A stretch of DNA of 64,000 nucleotides from Escherichia phage vB_EcoP_PW8. The DNA is taken from sequence record PQ362703.1; one strand, 5' to 3'. Below are positions 1,401 through 25,695 of this stretch, piece by piece. How positions within the stretch are numbered: position 1 is the stretch's first letter; every line of letters begins with the position of its first letter. Both the position numbers and the translations under genes were made by a program. The notes below the pieces were generated by a model. It ran no database searches and was not told where the DNA came from. It saw only the letters and a list, made by a program, of their open reading frames with translations.

Positions 1401-1548
1401 TTAGTCATGCCGCCTAGTAGACAGTGGCGGTACTCGTAAAGAGTTAATAACTTCTACAGTCAGGGTTGCCCGGCTCCTTTCCTACCTAGTAGGCTAACGA
1501 TACACATGTATCTAGGGTGATGAACTGACCCGTGATAGAAAACGGTAA

Positions 1549-1584
1549 GGGGTAGAGTCGAGAGGCTCTACCCCATTTCTTTTT
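1549..1584 (+). terminator. rho-independent terminator
   Basis: GGGGTAGAG / CTCTACCCC 9-bp stem followed by ATTTCTTTTT. Confidence 0.6.
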
Positions 1585-1600
1585 CAGGAGGTATGCAATT

Positions 1601-1996
1601 ATGAGCATCTACGCCTTTGACATTGATATTACCGGTGTACTCCGTAAGCAGGAACCCTACTACCTAGGGGAACCTGAGATGGTTAGTAAATTCCTATCTA
1701 AACATGTAGTCTTCCTACCAGACTGTGGGGAATCCCATGAGATAGTTGGTTCATTTTTCTTAAGTAATCTGCAAATTAACACTGAGATACTTACTGAACC
1801 AAAGGTGTATGATCTTACTGAGTACTCTGACTTCGAAACATTCTTCCCAGGAATCAGGTTCTATAAAGTACCTGGTTGGGAAATGATTGTTGAACATAAC
1901 CTATTTAATAAAACGCTTTCCGTTTACTTCAGACACATTCCTAAAGGAAGGAAAATCCATCATGAAATTCATACTAACCGCCCCCAGTTTTGTTAA
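1601..1996 (+). CDS. small early protein, paralog family member 1
   Basis: 131-aa ORF with AGGAGG RBS; carries motif VVFLPDCGESHEIVGSFFL shared with neighbouring ORFs. Confidence 0.55.
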   Translation: MSIYAFDIDITGVLRKQEPYYLGEPEMVSKFLSKHVVFLPDCGESHEIVGSFFLSNLQINTEILTEPKVYDLTEYSDFETFFPGIRFYKVPGWEMIVEHNLFNKTLSVYFRHIPKGRKIHHEIHTNRPQFC

Positions 1997-2276
1997 AGGG
2001 GAATTCTTATACACAACAGACTTTACTTTAGAAGAAGTCATAGATAGCAATCCTCAGCATGTAATCCTGGTTCCTACCTTAGAGGATTATCATGAAGTAA
2101 GGGGTCAGCTCTTCTTATCAGGTAACGACCGTAAAGTTGTATGCATCATTCCTCCATCAGTGTATACCGATAGTAGTGCGTATGACGCTTTGCCTTTCAT
2201 GATGGTATCCGATAACTACCAATGGGATTGTAGGCATGAGGATGAGAAATACCATTACTACTATGTAAGGAAGTAA
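1962..2276 (+). CDS. small early protein, paralog family member 2
   Basis: Track ORF 1887..2276 trimmed to internal ATG (Met26) preceded by AAGGAAGG; motif VILVPTLEDYHEVRGQLFL. Confidence 0.5.
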   Translation: MKFILTAPSFVKGEFLYTTDFTLEEVIDSNPQHVILVPTLEDYHEVRGQLFLSGNDRKVVCIIPPSVYTDSSAYDALPFMMVSDNYQWDCRHEDEKYHYYYVRK

Positions 2277-2279
2277 GAT

Positions 2280-18745: not shown

Positions 18746-21313
18746 ATGTTAGTTGCAGATACCAATGAAGTAGCTACCTCAGCGACACTGGGTGGCAAAG
18801 AAACAATTGCCTTTGGCATCTCCGATGACCCGGCATTCTTTCACGTATTAAGTACTTCCCTGTATAACAATCCTACCCTGGCAGTAGTCCGTGAGACTAT
18901 CTGTAACAGTTGGGATGCTCATATTGAAGCAGGTAAGACTGATACCCCTATCCGTATCACTATTGATACAGACAACTTTATTACCTTCCGTGACTACGGT
19001 AATGGTATTCCAGATGAACTCATTGGTTCCATTTATGGTGTCTATGGTGCATCTACTAAGAAAGCCAACAGTAGTGCTACTGGTGGTTTTGGTCTGGGAT
19101 GTAAATCCCCATTCGCTTATACAGATAGCTTCCAGGTTACTTCATGGAACCAGGGAAAGATGTCGGTATATAACGTAGCTAAGGCTGCGATTGAGAATGA
19201 TGGTAAGCCTGGCATTGTTCCTATCGTTACTAATATTCCTACTGAGGAATCCGGTATGGAAGTTAAATTCCAGTTAGGCAAGCATGATGTAAATACCTTT
19301 GTACATTACATCACATCAATTGTGTTCAATGGTGAGATTAAAGCTGAGCTTAGTATCCCTAAACTCGTTAAAACAGAAGCAGGTAATAGTATTCAACAAG
19401 GTGATTACACTTTACTGAATACGTTAGGTATGTCATTTGAACCTGGTTCATATGATATGTCTGATAGCTGGTATAAAGGCTATATGGGTAACAGTAACAT
19501 ATTCGTTCGTTACGGTAACGTAATGTACCCAATAGTATCTAGCCCAGCTAGTGAAGAAGCTGTAGGTCTTATCCTCAACTTTATGAACATCATTGGTGCT
19601 TCTAATTTAGTAGTTCAGGCTGCACCAGACACCCTGGCTATTGCTCCTAGTCGAGAAACTCTGTCTAACCAGAAGTTAACCGACGATGGTATTACTACTC
19701 TGTGTGTTGATTTAGTAGACCGTATGGAGAAAGAGATTAAGGCTAAAATTCCTGAAGCTATTAAGCAGGTTGAGAAATATGCCTCTGAAGCCACTACTTG
19801 CTATTGGAAATATCCACCTTTCCTGTCTGCTGTTAAAGACTCCATTGTTCAACGATATATGTCCTCTAGTTTGTGGGCTAAGCAACGTAAGCATCATATC
19901 AAGCACTGGCGTAACTTATCCAATAAGGCATTATTAGCTCGTCCTGAATATGCAGGTCTTAAGAAACTGTATGGTAAGGCTATGCGTGCTCTTAAGGATA
20001 CTCGTGAAGAAAGTACATACTCCCCATTCCATGAATTAGTATATCGTCATCTGCACTTACCCCAGCTTGCTGCTTTAAAAGCTATAGGTATTAAGTGGTC
20101 TGGCTACATAGTGAACCAGGGTAACAGTGTTGATTTGGAGAAAGGTAAACTCGCTGACTACTTTAGAATATTCCATAACTCCCACCAGAGTATTGGCATA
20201 TTCACTACCAAGAACGTTGTAGTTACCCGACGTTTATCTGACTGTGCAGACTCTTTCTCGTACTTCCCTGAGTACAACCGAGGTGACTTGGAGCGTACAG
20301 CTTTTGTTCACGTCGTTGGACCTAAGAAGGGTGCGGCAGAGGAAGCTGTAGCTAAGTTCACTGCTATGGGTTATCGGGTAATTGACCTTACTCAATACAA
20401 TGAGTGGGACAAACCAACTAACTTCCGTAGGGAACAGGCTAAGATAGCTGCTGAGAGACGAGCTAAGACAATAGCTACCAATAAAACCAAAGCAGGAGGT
20501 AAAACTAATGCTCTGATTTCATTGAATGCAGTTAATGGTACTACTATTGTACGGGATAAAAATGGTGATTGGTTATCTAAGCCTTATATTCAGAAGGAGT
20601 TTGCTGACCCAAGCCGCCATGATAAATCTGGTTTCGTTGAAGTAGAGAAGCCAAAGTACTATGTACTGGCTAATCAGGTTGGTTCAGGTAGCCCAGTAAC
20701 TGCCAGTATTGGAACCATGTGGAAATGGCATGAGTTGTCCGATGAGATGAAAGCAGAGACAGTTGTCTGCCGCAATCAAATCGAAGCTAACAAGGCCAAA
20801 CGACGGGGTGCTATCCACATTGATGATGTTCGCTTTAGGGAACTGATGTCAGTCATTACCAGTAAGGGATTCAAGAAGTATATCACTGAACACCGTATTG
20901 GTATTCTGGAATACGTAGGACTAGATGACAGAGAGTATTGGGAAATCCTAGATATTCTTGGTCTAACATTCAAACCATTACAGAATCTGATTTTTAAACC
21001 AGAGTATGAATGGGCATATGACTTTTTACGAAATCGACCACACGACAACAAAGAAAAACTTGTTGAAATGGGTTGTATTAAGTCAGTTGATGACCTAGAG
21101 CCATATATAGTGATGACTAATCCCCGTAACCATAAGTATTTCCAAATACTTAATGATTACAAAGGACTATTCAGCTATAGCTGGGCTAAAAATGACATCC
21201 TACAGACACTGGACTTAGGTAGTTTGGTCAAGCACCTTAAGAAGAATCCAGAGGATATTCCTGGGTTTAAGTGCCTCTACCGTAATCGTCTAAATAAACT
21301 GAAAGGTAACTAA
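18746..21313 (+). CDS. rIIA: rIIA-like protein with N-terminal GHKL (histidine-kinase-like) ATPase domain
   Basis: GHKL-like N box CNSWDAH, G1 box RDYGNGIP, G2 box GGFGLGCKS; T4 rIIA carries such a domain and N4-like phages encode rIIA/rIIB homologs (established knowledge). Confidence 0.5.
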   Translation: MLVADTNEVATSATLGGKETIAFGISDDPAFFHVLSTSLYNNPTLAVVRETICNSWDAHIEAGKTDTPIRITIDTDNFITFRDYGNGIPDELIGSIYGVYGASTKKANSSATGGFGLGCKSPFAYTDSFQVTSWNQGKMSVYNVAKAAIENDGKPGIVPIVTNIPTEESGMEVKFQLGKHDVNTFVHYITSIVFNGEIKAELSIPKLVKTEAGNSIQQGDYTLLNTLGMSFEPGSYDMSDSWYKGYMGNSNIFVRYGNVMYPIVSSPASEEAVGLILNFMNIIGASNLVVQAAPDTLAIAPSRETLSNQKLTDDGITTLCVDLVDRMEKEIKAKIPEAIKQVEKYASEATTCYWKYPPFLSAVKDSIVQRYMSSSLWAKQRKHHIKHWRNLSNKALLARPEYAGLKKLYGKAMRALKDTREESTYSPFHELVYRHLHLPQLAALKAIGIKWSGYIVNQGNSVDLEKGKLADYFRIFHNSHQSIGIFTTKNVVVTRRLSDCADSFSYFPEYNRGDLERTAFVHVVGPKKGAAEEAVAKFTAMGYRVIDLTQYNEWDKPTNFRREQAKIAAERRAKTIATNKTKAGGKTNALISLNAVNGTTIVRDKNGDWLSKPYIQKEFADPSRHDKSGFVEVEKPKYYVLANQVGSGSPVTASIGTMWKWHELSDEMKAETVVCRNQIEANKAKRRGAIHIDDVRFRELMSVITSKGFKKYITEHRIGILEYVGLDDREYWEILDILGLTFKPLQNLIFKPEYEWAYDFLRNRPHDNKEKLVEMGCIKSVDDLEPYIVMTNPRNHKYFQILNDYKGLFSYSWAKNDILQTLDLGSLVKHLKKNPEDIPGFKCLYRNRLNKLKGN

Positions 21314-21317
21314 TCTG

Positions 21318-23363
21318 ATGAAAATCGAATTGATTTCTATCATCGCACTGGCAGTTGACAGTCGTAACCTTACACTGTGGAAGCCTGATGGCTCCACGAT
21401 TGTATATCCCCAGAGCGACCTACGGGTTGCTCGCATTGTATCTGAAGCACAAACCAAAGGTCTGGGAACTACCAAAGACCAAGTAGAAGTAAACATTGCA
21501 CCGGAAGTAGAACTGCGTACTGAATATCTGGAAGCAGAGAAGAACACTAACGGATTCGTCCGTTTCTTCAAGGTAGCAAAAGCTAAACTCAAAGAGTTCT
21601 TCCAGGATGGTACAGGTACTCAACCTGACCGTATTATTTCTGATATTAAGCTAGGTAATCCTACTAAGACACTGGTGTCTAAAGCTATGGATACCTTCCT
21701 GGCTGTACAGGCTAATGAACCAGAAGTAACCGTATCTGACGGTTTTTATGACAGTCGTGACAATCTGATGTGGGTTACTGGCTGGAATAAGGACCATAAC
21801 CATCCTGCACTGGTTCGTTTTATCAATGACGTACTGCGTTGTGGTTATGACCATACCAACCGTACTCTTGCACAAGATTGGCCTATTGCAATTCGTGCAG
21901 TATCTGATGATGAAATGGGTGAGTTTGCTAAACAAGCTCAGCACATCAAAGGAGTACACATTGTATTTACCAGTCGTGATGAAACGCCACTACCCTATGT
22001 GGAAGTGGTTAAAACTACGAACCAGGATAAGCTGGCTGCTGCTTCTGAGAAACTAGCTGCATTAGGTGCTATCAGTACTGATGATGCTAACTTCCACACT
22101 GACGTGAAGGAAGATGAAGTGGTTGTTGCTGTTACCAACAATGGGGTTATCCCTGGAGTTGAGAATCTGCATCGTCACTTACGTCAGTCTGCAAAACTGA
22201 AAGATTACAAGGGCTTTACTAAGTTCCTTGAGCGTCTGGCTCCGGTTATTAAAGACCGTCTGCACTCAGTGGAAGACCTGATGAAGTTCATGGAAACTGC
22301 TGAACTGCCTATTGCTGATGACGGTTCAATCCTGTTCCTGAAGCGTCTGAAGTTTAAAGAAGTAAATGGTGGTAAGCGTGTATTTGTTGACTGTCACTCA
22401 GGTAATATCCGTCAATGGGTAGGCTGTAAAGTGCAGGTACGAGAAGACCTGGTAGACCCTGACCGTCGTCAGGACTGCTCTAACGGTTTGCATGTAGCAT
22501 CCATGAGCTATATCCGTAGCTTCGGTGGTAACGTAACTATCCTTGGTAAAGTAGCACCGGAAGATGTATTTGCTGTTCCTCAGTACAGCACCAATAAGAT
22601 GCGTGTATCTGCATATCATATTATTGCTGAACTGCCGGAAGAAGAACGTAATAACGTTAACAACGGTATCTACCTGTCTAAAACAGAAGTAGGTAAGAAG
22701 TTGCTTAATGATGCCATCGTTGGGAACCATAGTTCACCTACCACACTTATTATGGTTGGTGGTCATCGTGGTACTAACCTCAAATACACTAATCTCACAT
22801 CTGGTTCTGTAGAACAATTCCGTACAGTTGCTAGTAAAGAAGCACTGAACATGGAAGAGTCACTAAATGAAGCTGTAGCTGCTGAACCAGTGAAAGCTAC
22901 TGACCTTAAACCTGTTATTAAGAAGGCTCCTACTGTGAAAGAACAAATCCAGGAACTGGTCAAAGAGTTCCTCAATGCAACAACACCAGAAGATAAGTTA
23001 GCTGCTGCTGATTTACTTGTGGAAATGCGAGGCAAGGCTCGTAAGCCATGGGCTGCTTTAGGAGTTAGTTCCGATGTGGTGGATGCAATTGCTACTATTC
23101 GTAGTACTCGTATTCCTGCACCAAAAGCTAAGTCAGTGAAGAAAACTAAACCTATGCGTTCTGCTACTGCCACTAAAGTAGCTCCGTCTGGTAAACATGC
23201 TGATAATCTGCGTAGCATCCTGAACGATACGACGTACTCTGACTATCAGAAAGGCCATGCTCTGCAAGACTATAAGCGTCATGCCAAGAAGTCATTCACT
23301 GCAATGGGTCTGACTGAAGAAGAAGCTAAGTTAGCTACCAAGCTAGTTAAGGCTGCTAAGTAA
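21318..23363 (+). CDS. rIIB: rIIB-like protein (by position after rIIA-like gene)
   Basis: 681-aa ORF immediately downstream; assignment by synteny only. Confidence 0.4.
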   Translation: MKIELISIIALAVDSRNLTLWKPDGSTIVYPQSDLRVARIVSEAQTKGLGTTKDQVEVNIAPEVELRTEYLEAEKNTNGFVRFFKVAKAKLKEFFQDGTGTQPDRIISDIKLGNPTKTLVSKAMDTFLAVQANEPEVTVSDGFYDSRDNLMWVTGWNKDHNHPALVRFINDVLRCGYDHTNRTLAQDWPIAIRAVSDDEMGEFAKQAQHIKGVHIVFTSRDETPLPYVEVVKTTNQDKLAAASEKLAALGAISTDDANFHTDVKEDEVVVAVTNNGVIPGVENLHRHLRQSAKLKDYKGFTKFLERLAPVIKDRLHSVEDLMKFMETAELPIADDGSILFLKRLKFKEVNGGKRVFVDCHSGNIRQWVGCKVQVREDLVDPDRRQDCSNGLHVASMSYIRSFGGNVTILGKVAPEDVFAVPQYSTNKMRVSAYHIIAELPEEERNNVNNGIYLSKTEVGKKLLNDAIVGNHSSPTTLIMVGGHRGTNLKYTNLTSGSVEQFRTVASKEALNMEESLNEAVAAEPVKATDLKPVIKKAPTVKEQIQELVKEFLNATTPEDKLAAADLLVEMRGKARKPWAALGVSSDVVDAIATIRSTRIPAPKAKSVKKTKPMRSATATKVAPSGKHADNLRSILNDTTYSDYQKGHALQDYKRHAKKSFTAMGLTEEEAKLATKLVKAAK

Positions 23364-23378
23364 TAGCCTGTTCAAACG

Positions 23379-23409
23379 CCCTCACTTGTAATAAAGTGAG
23401 GGTAATTTT
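23379..23409 (+). terminator. rho-independent terminator
   Basis: CCCTCACTT-GTAATA-AAGTGAGGG followed by TAATTTTG. Confidence 0.55.
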
Positions 23410-23425
23410 GAGGAGGAAATGTACT

Positions 23426-23821
23426 ATGAGTAAAGTATTCAGAAGTAATCGCAAAGCAACCGATGAAGACATCATTCGTATGAATGCTGTTGGGTTATCC
23501 CTCGCAACTATCGCTAAGACGTTGGGGGTTCACCCCACTACGGTTACTTTGCGATTGCGTTCTCTAAACATTGAACCAGCCGACACACGTCGGACGTTCA
23601 TGGAAAACGTATTACGTCCTTTACCAACCCATGTGGCTGATTGGCTGTCAGAACAAGTTGGTCCTGCTTATGAGATTCGCTCATATGTAAGAGACTTGAT
23701 TCTGGAAGCATATAATAATCGCCACCTTAACCAAGAGAGTGAGCATGACAAGTTCATCCGTTTGTACGCTGGCAAATACGGAAGCCTGGTTCCGGAAAGC
23801 AGTACCAAATCCGACGAGTAA
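23426..23821 (+). CDS. HTH DNA-binding protein
   Basis: Helix-turn-helix-like LSLATIAKTLGVHPTTV; ATG Met11 with AGGAGG RBS. Confidence 0.5.
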   Translation: MSKVFRSNRKATDEDIIRMNAVGLSLATIAKTLGVHPTTVTLRLRSLNIEPADTRRTFMENVLRPLPTHVADWLSEQVGPAYEIRSYVRDLILEAYNNRHLNQESEHDKFIRLYAGKYGSLVPESSTKSDE

Positions 23822-24206
23822 AAACATTAGTACCCAGATTGGTTGCCATCTGGAAGAAGTAGTAGAAATGTTAGATGAATTGACCCCATCCTGCGAGGAT
23901 AGTATGCAAGTGTTAGCCGATGCACAGGCTGCTTTGGGTAAATTATCACTGCTGATGAAAACAAACCACATGGCTATTTTCCCAGCGAATAGCAATCGCT
24001 TAGCCTTGCTGGATTCACTGGCAGACCAGATTGTTACAGCAACTGGCGTCGGTACTTTCCTTGGGATGAATGTCCCTGGAGCATTGGCTGAGGTCAATCG
24101 CTCAAACTATTCTAAGTTTGAAGATGGAGAACCTGTCTTCAATGAGAATATGAAAGTTATGAAAGGGAAAGACTATACTCCCCCGGATTTAACGCCGTAT
24201 ATCTGA
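23739..24206 (+). CDS. hypothetical protein, possibly MazG-like NTP pyrophosphohydrolase fold (start uncertain)
   Basis: Glu-rich helix IGCHLEEVVEMLDELT; overlaps the previous gene by 83 nt in another frame; alternative start 23868. Confidence 0.35.
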   Translation: MSMTSSSVCTLANTEAWFRKAVPNPTSKNISTQIGCHLEEVVEMLDELTPSCEDSMQVLADAQAALGKLSLLMKTNHMAIFPANSNRLALLDSLADQIVTATGVGTFLGMNVPGALAEVNRSNYSKFEDGEPVFNENMKVMKGKDYTPPDLTPYI

Positions 24207-24213
24207 GGTATGT

Positions 24214-24345
24214 ATGACTGAAGATTTTCTGACATGGTTTGAAAAGACTTTTCCCGTGCATCTTTGGCCCTCTGAAGAAGAACGGGAGGAACTAAAAACC
24301 TACACCTGGCTAGCTTGGCGTGATGCCAAAAGAGTAACTACTTAA
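24214..24345 (+). CDS. possible small protein (43 aa)
   Basis: ATG ORF with GAGGT RBS lying between two longer genes, followed by a strong terminator; below track cutoff. Confidence 0.3.
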   Translation: MTEDFLTWFEKTFPVHLWPSEEEREELKTYTWLAWRDAKRVTT

Positions 24346-24349
24346 AAAC

Positions 24350-24372
24350 AACCCTCTACGGAGGGTTTTTTA
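24350..24372 (+). terminator. rho-independent terminator
   Basis: AACCCTC-TACG-GAGGGTT followed by TTTTT. Confidence 0.75.
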
Positions 24373-24384
24373 CTGGAGATTTTA

Positions 24385-25695
24385 ATGTTTTCCAAACCTA
24401 CCAAAGCCCCACTGAACAAGGGGCAAGAAGCGGTTGCGAAGGAGTTCTTCGACTTCCTGCTCGACCCTAATGCTACCGAATTCAATATTAGTGGCCCAGG
24501 GGGAACTGGCAAGACATTCCTGATGTCGCACCTCATTGATGACACTATGCCTGCATATATGGAAACTTGCTCCCTTATGGGAACCAAGCCTATGTATAAC
24601 GAGGTTGTTATGACTGCGACCACGAACAAGGCTGCTGAAGTTCTGGCTCAGGCTACTGGACGTCCAACATCTACCTATCATTCCTTCCAGGGATTGATTG
24701 TTAAGAATGACTTTAAGACTGGTGAGGCTAATGTCGTACCGTCCAAATCATTCAATATTAAGAAGAACAAAATCATCTTCGTAGACGAAGCATCCATGAT
24801 TGACCGTCAGCTGCTTAAGTATGCTCGTGAAGGTACTCACCAGTGCAAACTGGTATTCGTAGGCGATGCTTCTCAGCTTCTACCTGTTAAAGAGAATAAA
24901 TCTCCAGTATATGCAGGTAATATCCCAACACACTACCTGACTGAACAGATGCGTACCGATGCACCGGAACTCAAAGCATTGCACCAACAATTGCGTGATA
25001 CAGTGGAAGGTAAGACAGGCTTCCTGCCTATTAAGTGTATTCCAGGCATCATTGACTGGGTACAAGGAGAAGAGATGGAGAAACTGGTTCTCAGCCACTT
25101 CACTCAACCCACCAATAGTCGTATTGTTGCTTACACGAATGACCAGGTTATTAATTACAATAACTACATTCGTGAAGCCAATGGTTACGTAGGTGAGTAC
25201 TCCATCGGTGAACAGTTAGTTTCTAACTCTGCTGTTCGCTTAGGTGTGGAAGACCGTCTGTCTATCGAGCAAGACGTAAAACTCATTGACCAGGATAGCA
25301 GTACTCGCATGATTCAGGTTACAGGTGACCTGGAACTAGAAGTTCGTGATAGTACTCTGGACCTTGGTTATGGTGGTATTGTAAGTGAAGTTCCAGTACC
25401 TACTGACCCAGAATACTTCAACCGTTTGGTTAAGTGGCTAGGTAAAGAGAAGAACTGGGAACCATACTTCCGTCTTAAAGAAACCATTCCAGACCTGCGT
25501 GCTACTCATGCATGTACTGTCCATAAATCACAAGGCTCTACTTACGACACAATCTTCATTGATGCAGATGACCTCTCAAGCTGTCGCCAACCTGATATGG
25601 TTGCCCGTCTGCTTTACGTAGCTGTGTCTCGTGCCCGTAAACGAGTAGTGTTCTATGGCAATCTTGCCAGTAAGTACGGTGGCCTAACTTTCTAA
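24385..25695 (+). CDS. SF1 DNA helicase (Dda/RecD-like)
   Basis: Walker A GPGGTGKT, Walker B FVDEASM, further SF1 motifs VFVGDASQLLPV and VHKSQGSTYD. Confidence 0.8.
   Translation: MFSKPTKAPLNKGQEAVAKEFFDFLLDPNATEFNISGPGGTGKTFLMSHLIDDTMPAYMETCSLMGTKPMYNEVVMTATTNKAAEVLAQATGRPTSTYHSFQGLIVKNDFKTGEANVVPSKSFNIKKNKIIFVDEASMIDRQLLKYAREGTHQCKLVFVGDASQLLPVKENKSPVYAGNIPTHYLTEQMRTDAPELKALHQQLRDTVEGKTGFLPIKCIPGIIDWVQGEEMEKLVLSHFTQPTNSRIVAYTNDQVINYNNYIREANGYVGEYSIGEQLVSNSAVRLGVEDRLSIEQDVKLIDQDSSTRMIQVTGDLELEVRDSTLDLGYGGIVSEVPVPTDPEYFNRLVKWLGKEKNWEPYFRLKETIPDLRATHACTVHKSQGSTYDTIFIDADDLSSCRQPDMVARLLYVAVSRARKRVVFYGNLASKYGGLTF

Follow-up and report, generated by a model that had tools for sequence, protein, structure and literature searches.

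A conserved 77-nt overlap between a predicted DNA-binding protein gene and a predicted NTP pyrophosphohydrolase gene in Escherichia phage vB_EcoP_PW8 and other N4-like phages

Introduction

The closest described counterparts of the locus studied here are gp35 and gp36 of the phages N4 and G7C. In the RefSeq genome of N4 (NC_008720), gp35 (20143..20538) and gp36 (20462..20914) are annotated with a 77-nt overlap, and gp35/gp36 of the G7C RefSeq genome are annotated with a 77-nt overlap too. Among the first 53 CDSs of N4 this overlap is the longest, the runner-up being 26 nt. Present in both reference annotations, the 77-nt overlap is already known, and it is genuine but ordinary. A literature search on N4 gp35/gp36 or their overlap returned nothing specific, and neither ribosome profiling nor N-terminal proteomics nor a mapping of start sites turned up for these genes.

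Terminal same-strand overlaps that arise through stop-codon loss and run-on, with a partition between ordered and disordered products, are known from the overprinting literature. Programmed frameshifting is known from gene pairs of tailed phages that encode the tail assembly chaperones G/GT, and from prfB-type +1 shifts.

We analysed a 64,000-nt stretch of Escherichia phage vB_EcoP_PW8 (PQ362703.1, hereafter the window), in which an HTH gene and the downstream gene of a predicted NTP pyrophosphohydrolase (NTPase) overlap out of frame. Like N4 and G7C, the window carries the orthologous genes in the order rIIB, HTH, NTPase and Dda-like helicase, with a 77-nt overlap, a +1 frame relation and an NTPase ATG formed from His-Asp/Glu codons of the HTH gene. 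It differs from N4 in sequence (protein identity 76% for HTH and 66% for NTPase), in a Gamaleyavirus-specific in-frame GTG 6 nt upstream of the ATG and in an extra downstream 43-aa ORF. As in terminal overprinting overlaps, two frames are read on one stretch; in each sub-segment constraint falls mainly on one frame, and disorder is predicted for the unconstrained product. Unlike overprinting, the overlap affects just a tail of 14 residues and a leader of 11 and creates neither a protein nor a domain anew, and it is thus a terminal overlap rather than a de novo gene. The locus resembles G/GT-type frameshift pairs in that an out-of-frame downstream ORF overlaps the end of the upstream ORF, but here the downstream ORF has its own start and belongs to a family that stands alone elsewhere, and we found no conserved slippery site, stimulator or fusion homologues.

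Results

Gene content and surroundings of the overlap

The window comes from a Gamaleyavirus (N4-like, Schitoviridae, Enquatrovirinae). A megablast search with 23300-24400 matched 76 phage records, nearly all of them Escherichia/Shigella Gamaleyavirus, and the top relatives were nithesis, AN24P2, 24-32N, IME11 and Bp4 (93-96% identity). The genes follow the order rIIB (21318..23363), HTH gene, NTPase ORF, 43-aa ORF and Dda/RecD-like helicase (24385..25695), with DNA polymerase A further on; this block is the N4 gp34-gp39 replication block. The sequence and the ORF list bear out the original prediction of an HTH gene that is overlapped in another frame by a second ORF, 23739..24206. The features of the locus, other than those around the NTPase start, are:

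23379..23402, + strand: stem-loop CCCTCACTT-GTAATA-AAGTGAGGG and then TAATTTT, in the interval that separates rIIB from the HTH gene, read from the sequence
23410..23416, + strand: putative Shine-Dalgarno (SD) sequence GAGGAGG of the HTH gene, 9 nt 5' of ATG 23426, read from the sequence
23426..23821, + strand: HTH gene, 131 aa, N4 gp35 homologue (phrog_6377), ATG at 23426 and TAA at 23819-23821
23745..24206, + strand: gene of a predicted MazG/DR2231-like all-alpha NTP pyrophosphohydrolase, 153 aa, N4 gp36 homologue (phrog_671)
24214..24345, + strand: 43-aa ORF (phrog_9481; MTEDFLTWFEKTFPVHLWPSEEEREELKTYTWLAWRDAKRVTT), in a segment of about 145 nt of variable presence
24350..24375, + strand: terminator-like hairpin AACCCTCTACGGAGGGTT with a T run, before the helicase gene, from a terminator scan

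The stem-loop at 23379..23402 has a 9-bp stem, and its counterpart in the G7C RefSeq genome is annotated as a stem_loop; it was absent from the output of a simple terminator scan. In PhAPEC7 a putative terminator is annotated directly 3' of the NTPase gene. The hairpins at 23379-23402 and 24350-24375 flank the HTH, NTPase and 43-aa-ORF block at its upstream and downstream edges, and these three may form a small transcription unit. The segment of about 145 nt with the 43-aa ORF was found here and in phage F22 and is missing from most close relatives, in which the NTPase stop passes straight into the terminator-like hairpin. The sole result of a promoter scan, a weak sigma-70-like site inside the NTPase gene, was below shuffle expectation and was disregarded.

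The two overlapping genes

The HTH gene product is a predicted small DNA-binding protein, tentatively of the helix-turn-helix type (Pfam HTH_38/HTH_23), with a conserved core (residues 1 to ~100), a clade-specific motif H[DE][KR]F[IL][RK]xYAG at residues 107-116 and a variable tail at residues 118-131. In an AF2 model built from database homologues, the core helices extend as far as residue 97, a helix of low confidence spans 106-114, and residues 117-131 have a pLDDT below 50. Distant homologues are mostly ~100-110 aa long and cover only ~70-85% of the query, and intermediate homologues of 119-123 aa have their C-terminus just past the HERFLKRY motif.

The downstream product can be placed in the all-alpha MazG/DR2231-like NTP pyrophosphohydrolase superfamily, with the splitting of (d)NTP into (d)NMP and PPi as its predicted activity. 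PHROG 671 ('nucleotide pyrophosphohydrolase') matches residues 8-153 with an E-value of 4.9e-32, and the A4 profile matched PDB 3nl9 with an E-value of 1e-6. Searches of the NTPase against Pfam and NCBIfam gave no match, a single-sequence search of the PDB reached only E ~1 (to DR2231), and Foldseek against the PDB gave no significant match (E about 2). Identity to DR2231-like/MazG-like enzymes (Exig_1061, PDB 3nl9; DR2231, 2yeu/5hva) is only about 19-22%. The acidic metal-binding motif of the superfamily, EExxE on one helix and DxxxD on another, is present. In an alignment of 98 diverse family members, E37, E38, E41, D90 and D94 are invariant and W15, F16 and P21 are at least 90% conserved. 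The AF2 model computed on this alignment (pLDDT 96) has helices at residues 8-19, 25-44, 51-73, 82-105 and 110-122, a helical-bundle all-alpha fold like that of solved superfamily members, and disordered residues 1-7. The original prediction had called the ORF Glu-rich, a description that does not hold: E makes up 10 of its 155 residues (6.5%), and only HLEEVVEMLDELTPSCED is acidic.

We found 633 NTPase homologues at E<=1e-3 in a set of 5.8 billion proteins, among them N4 gp36 (150 aa, 66% identity, 100% coverage), and the family comprises 1486 clusters in a 50%-representative library. These numbers, together with the conserved geometry of the overlap described below, place the ORF far beyond chance. 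One 151-aa homologue (P0018), 77% identical to the window NTPase and with an identical N-terminus MTSSSVCTLANTEAWFRKAV, carries the NCBI label 'Enterococcus faecium' and lies on a 2.76-Mb contig; it looks like contamination or a chimeric assembly with a coliphage.

A probable NTPase start inside the HTH gene

The NTPase ORF, shifted by +1 with respect to the HTH frame, extends from GTG 23739 to 24206. The elements that bear on its start are:

23733..23739, + strand: purine-rich SD-like stretch AAGAGAG, 5' of the NTPase start
23868..23870, + strand: internal Met42 codon of the NTPase, at which many GenBank annotations wrongly start the gene, giving products of 110-113 aa

The W15, F16 and P21 codons are preceded by just two canonical in-frame starts, ATG 23745 and GTG 23739. 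The codons of these three residues lie at 23787-23807, inside the HTH gene, and those of E37, E38 and E41 at 23853-23867, 5' of ATG 23868. Reading the sequence directly, we found no in-frame ATG, GTG or TTG between 23745 and 23868, and ATG 23868 is the first canonical NTPase-frame start past the HTH stop, in agreement with the original prediction. GTG 23739 was rejected as the true start: it is missing in N4 and KP8-like phages and is found only in Gamaleyavirus. Since ATG 23745 is the only start common to all lineages, it was taken as the start, which gives an overlap of 77 nt. The originally predicted length of 83 nt is correct if counted from GTG 23739, but not from the conserved ATG.

Homology extends well upstream of ATG 23868. 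In unrelated phages of Vibrio, Pseudoalteromonas, Rhizobium, Erwinia and Pseudomonas, tblastn matches set in at residues 8-15 of the query, and nearly all of the 150 listed representatives of the 1486 clusters align from NTPase residues 1-14. As homology reaches to about residue 8, the NTPase start most probably lies inside the HTH gene. Homologue alignment, proposed originally as a way of locating the true N-terminus, thus does not place the starts near 23868, and the genuine overlap that had been put forward as one possibility is borne out by the conserved residues W15, F16 and P21 encoded within it.

In the AF2 model, helix a1 (residues 8-19; 23766-23801) falls within the overlap, where it is encoded together with the disordered N-terminus. 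The helix singled out originally as lying upstream of 23868, IGCHLEEVVEMLDELT, corresponds to predicted helix a2 (residues 25-44, about 23817-23876); it straddles ATG 23868 and lies almost entirely 3' of the HTH stop.

In every lineage the SD-like run pairs with the 3' end of 16S at a duplex energy between -4 and -6.2 kcal/mol, similar to that of the HTH gene's own SD in the relatives, and it is kept though it encodes differing HTH residues (QES, KET, KGT). The element is weak, falling within the top 8-22% of background windows, and from its sequence a role in NTPase initiation is suggestive only. ATG 23745 itself is formed by the HTH His107-Asp108 codons (CAT GAC). Its conservation is confounded, as HTH His-Asp/Glu gives xAT GAx whenever the His/Tyr codon ends in T.

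Conservation of the overlap among relatives

We gathered loci from IMG/VR and GenBank. The distance from the HTH ATG to the NTPase ATG is 319 nt in 25/25 distinct Enquatrovirinae sequences, which comprise Gamaleyavirus, Enquatrovirus including N4, and Klebsiella KP8-like phages, come from independent isolates and metagenomes, and are phylogenetically non-independent, representing roughly five or six lineages. The HTH frame closes 77 nt past the NTPase ATG, or 86 nt in one lineage; in L094 an NTPase Ser is replaced by Gln and the HTH frame runs 9 nt longer. In more distant Schitoviridae the two genes overlap by 8 nt, lie 15 nt apart or are separated by a small ORF.

Achromobacter N4-like phages (L100-L103; 57-58% GC) have the ATG at the same position and an overlap of 185-269 nt (HTH ORF 1501..2004-2088, NTPase 1820..2278). 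Their long low-complexity HTH tails (…DGGSLRGSAGD…) are an alternative-frame reading of conserved NTPase sequence: the Achromobacter/Burkholderia tails DGxSLRGSxGD align with the other-frame NTPase segment QMGVHFEEVxEM. Proteins of the Burkholderia phage HN05 type (P0347, P0350) carry the tail motif as well.

Probable partition of constraint between the two halves of the overlap

The shared bases fall into two parts that differ in which product is conserved:

23745..23776, + strand: first part of the overlap, in which the HTH motif H107-K117 is constrained and the NTPase frame gives residues 1-11, which are variable and, up to residue 7, predicted to be disordered
23777..23821, + strand: second part of the overlap, in which NTPase residues 12-26, with helix a1, W15, F16 and P21, are constrained and the HTH frame gives the stop and the tail Y118-E131, which is variable and predicted to be disordered

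HTH residues 107-117 (H[DE][KR]F[IL][RK]xYAG[KT]) are conserved, and NTPase residues 1-11 vary (MTSSSVCTLAN, MSDSSKDTLVQ, MNDSSKDTLVQ). NTPase residues 12-26 (T..WF.KAVPNPTSK) are conserved, and HTH residues 118-131 vary (YGSLVPESSTKSDE, HTAMVSKSRTKSDE, NSELVSESRTDSDE, DQTMVQQGGTKPDPEEY). The HTH stop TAA arises from the NTPase Ser-Lys codons AGT-AAA.

The phase of substitution switches within the overlap. Counting minimum changes by HTH codon position 1/2/3, a test that ignores phylogeny and is hence indicative only, we obtained 38/21/148 in the HTH-only region, which is the HTH phase, and 23/9/7 in the NTPase-only region, which is the NTPase phase. The first ~33 nt of the overlap had 5/5/9 changes, with low total variability and no single-frame periodicity, and the last ~42-44 nt had 23/9/9 (p=0.008), with the peak at HTH position 1, that is, NTPase position 3. 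Third-position variability was lowest in the first part of the overlap, at 0.28 as compared to 0.39 in the HTH-only region; this 33-nt part is compatible with dual constraint by its sequence, in a stretch too short for proof. NTPase synonymous sites in the second part vary freely (0.466), which indicates no detectable constraint from the HTH tail.

The variable, disordered HTH tail, the shorter distant homologues and the tails read from the other frame indicate a run-on of the HTH frame, and they point to the last 14 HTH residues being a by-product of the NTPase sequence. The tail partly keeps a Ser/acidic character, and its Val122 is invariant; these features could reflect weak function rather than shadowing by the NTPase frame.

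An HNH cassette separates the two genes in pSb-1-like phages

In pSb-1-like phages a 532-nt HNH endonuclease cassette replaces the equivalent of window positions 23776-23798, exactly where the first half of the overlap meets the second. The HTH protein of these phages ends ...YAGKNRDELG and has 123 aa, and their NTPase starts MSDIITQTKKWF / MSDIITQTKKWFEIAV directly past the HNH stop and has 147 aa. Both genes are intact, so neither the overlap nor a fusion is needed.

The cassette lies at 617-1148 in Shigella phage pSb-1 (L116) and also occurs in L011, L045, L089 and L090. In pSb-1, the HNH coding sequence is preceded in frame by the former NTPase start with the first ~13 codons (MTSSSVCTLERT), and by this arrangement the HNH endonuclease may borrow the old NTPase initiation site. 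A 317-aa protein (P0250) has an HNH-endonuclease-like N-terminal part (…GKLYWKERPR…HRIIWLLETGEQP…DHINRIRTDN…) joined to an NTPase domain (residues 191-317), and suggests that HNH genes repeatedly land beside the NTPase gene or that the gene call fused both.

Discussion

We consider it highly probable that the overlap is genuine and vertically inherited, and that it lies between two independently translated genes. The NTPase would initiate at ATG 23745, within HTH codons, after a modest SD-like purine run. The HTH frame, which has no stop before this ATG, would continue to the TAA made by the NTPase codons AGT AAA. Constraint on the first ~33 nt would come mainly from the C-terminal HTH motif HDKFIRLYAGK, with the first ~11 NTPase residues acting as a tolerant disordered leader; on the last ~44 nt it would be exerted by NTPase helix a1 (TEAWFRKAVPNPTSK), and the last 14 HTH residues would be an unconstrained, disordered and probably functionless by-product.

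The overlap might instead be kept for regulation, with HTH-translating ribosomes coupling or occluding NTPase initiation and fixing the protein ratio, or with a functional HTH tail. The strict conservation of its geometry over three genera, seen also in the Achromobacter phages, argues for such a role, as do the lower third-position variability of the first part and the persistence of the SD-like run over varying HTH residues. The fixed 319-nt spacing is, however, accounted for by an ATG built from conserved HTH codons. In the pSb-1-like phages, which are viable isolates, an intervening HNH gene keeps the two genes ~470 nt apart, the more distant Schitoviridae do without a long overlap, NTPase synonymous sites in the second part are free to vary, and no RNA structure sequesters the NTPase start; we therefore regard regulation as an unlikely reason for the overlap. 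More doubtful still is that the 77-nt overlap is an adaptive translational device, in which ribosomes ending HTH translation would occlude or re-initiate at the NTPase start, or occasionally shift +1 to give a fusion. If true, the device would tie the output of a nucleotide-pool enzyme to a DNA-binding regulator in N4-type middle gene expression. A programmed +1 frameshift within 23700-23821 that yields an HTH-NTPase fusion, one of the explanations raised originally, draws on the +1 relation of the NTPase frame, which is open from 23700, so that a shift there gives a continuous product. We give it very little credence. No slippery or hungry-codon motif is common to Gamaleyavirus (…CAC CTT AAC CAA GAG…) and N4/KP8 (…AAT CAT AAG GAA ACT…), and a fold of 23690-23830 compared with shuffles revealed neither a stimulatory RNA structure nor an RBS-sequestering hairpin (z = -0.09). 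The downstream gene owns a conserved ATG and an SD-like run, and its homologues are stand-alone proteins of ~150 aa; in a phmmer search with the HTH protein, none of the 150 listed NTPase-family representatives, 50 of which are at least 185 aa long, had an HTH-like N-terminus. The physical separation of the genes in pSb-1-like phages also stands against a fusion.

Two other explanations were considered. The use of Met42 by eight of 13 annotated overlap-type relatives, the use by one more of a GTG just past the HTH stop, and the AGAAG/GTAG purines 5' of 23868 would fit an NTPase that starts at ATG 23868, downstream of a fortuitously open frame. The Met42 product, however, would be without helix a1, most of a2 and the metal-binding residues E37, E38 and E41. 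Residues 8-41 are conserved in homologues of unrelated phages lacking such an overlap, and substitutions in 23777-23867 follow the NTPase frame; we find this explanation scarcely believable. The indel error suggested originally, by which sequencing or assembly would have split or shifted one gene, has nothing in its favour beyond the unusual length of the overlap. The same frame relation recurs in the 25 distinct sequences from isolates and metagenomes, in three genera, and in the N4 and G7C reference genomes, and both proteins have the full length expected from their families, leaving the chance of such an error practically negligible.

The reading of two overlapping, separately translated genes has consequences for annotation. 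Nine of the 13 annotated overlap-type GenBank relatives that we inspected truncate the NTPase gene: eight start at Met42 (110-113 aa), and F22 starts at the GTG just past the HTH stop (120 aa). Of the 13, the full NTPase of 150-153 aa is annotated only in N4, G7C, nithesis and 24-32N. All nine truncated forms are without helix a1, and the eight Met42 forms are also without the three invariant glutamates. Metagenomic gene calls contain many 112-aa NTPase clusters that are likewise shortened.

The main value of these results is practical, as annotation correction, and the understanding of phage biology is unchanged. The HNH homing-endonuclease insertion provides a natural separation of the HTH and NTPase genes, and the locus is a clean small example of a terminal overlap that partitions constraint, each frame being conserved where the other encodes a disordered, tolerant segment.
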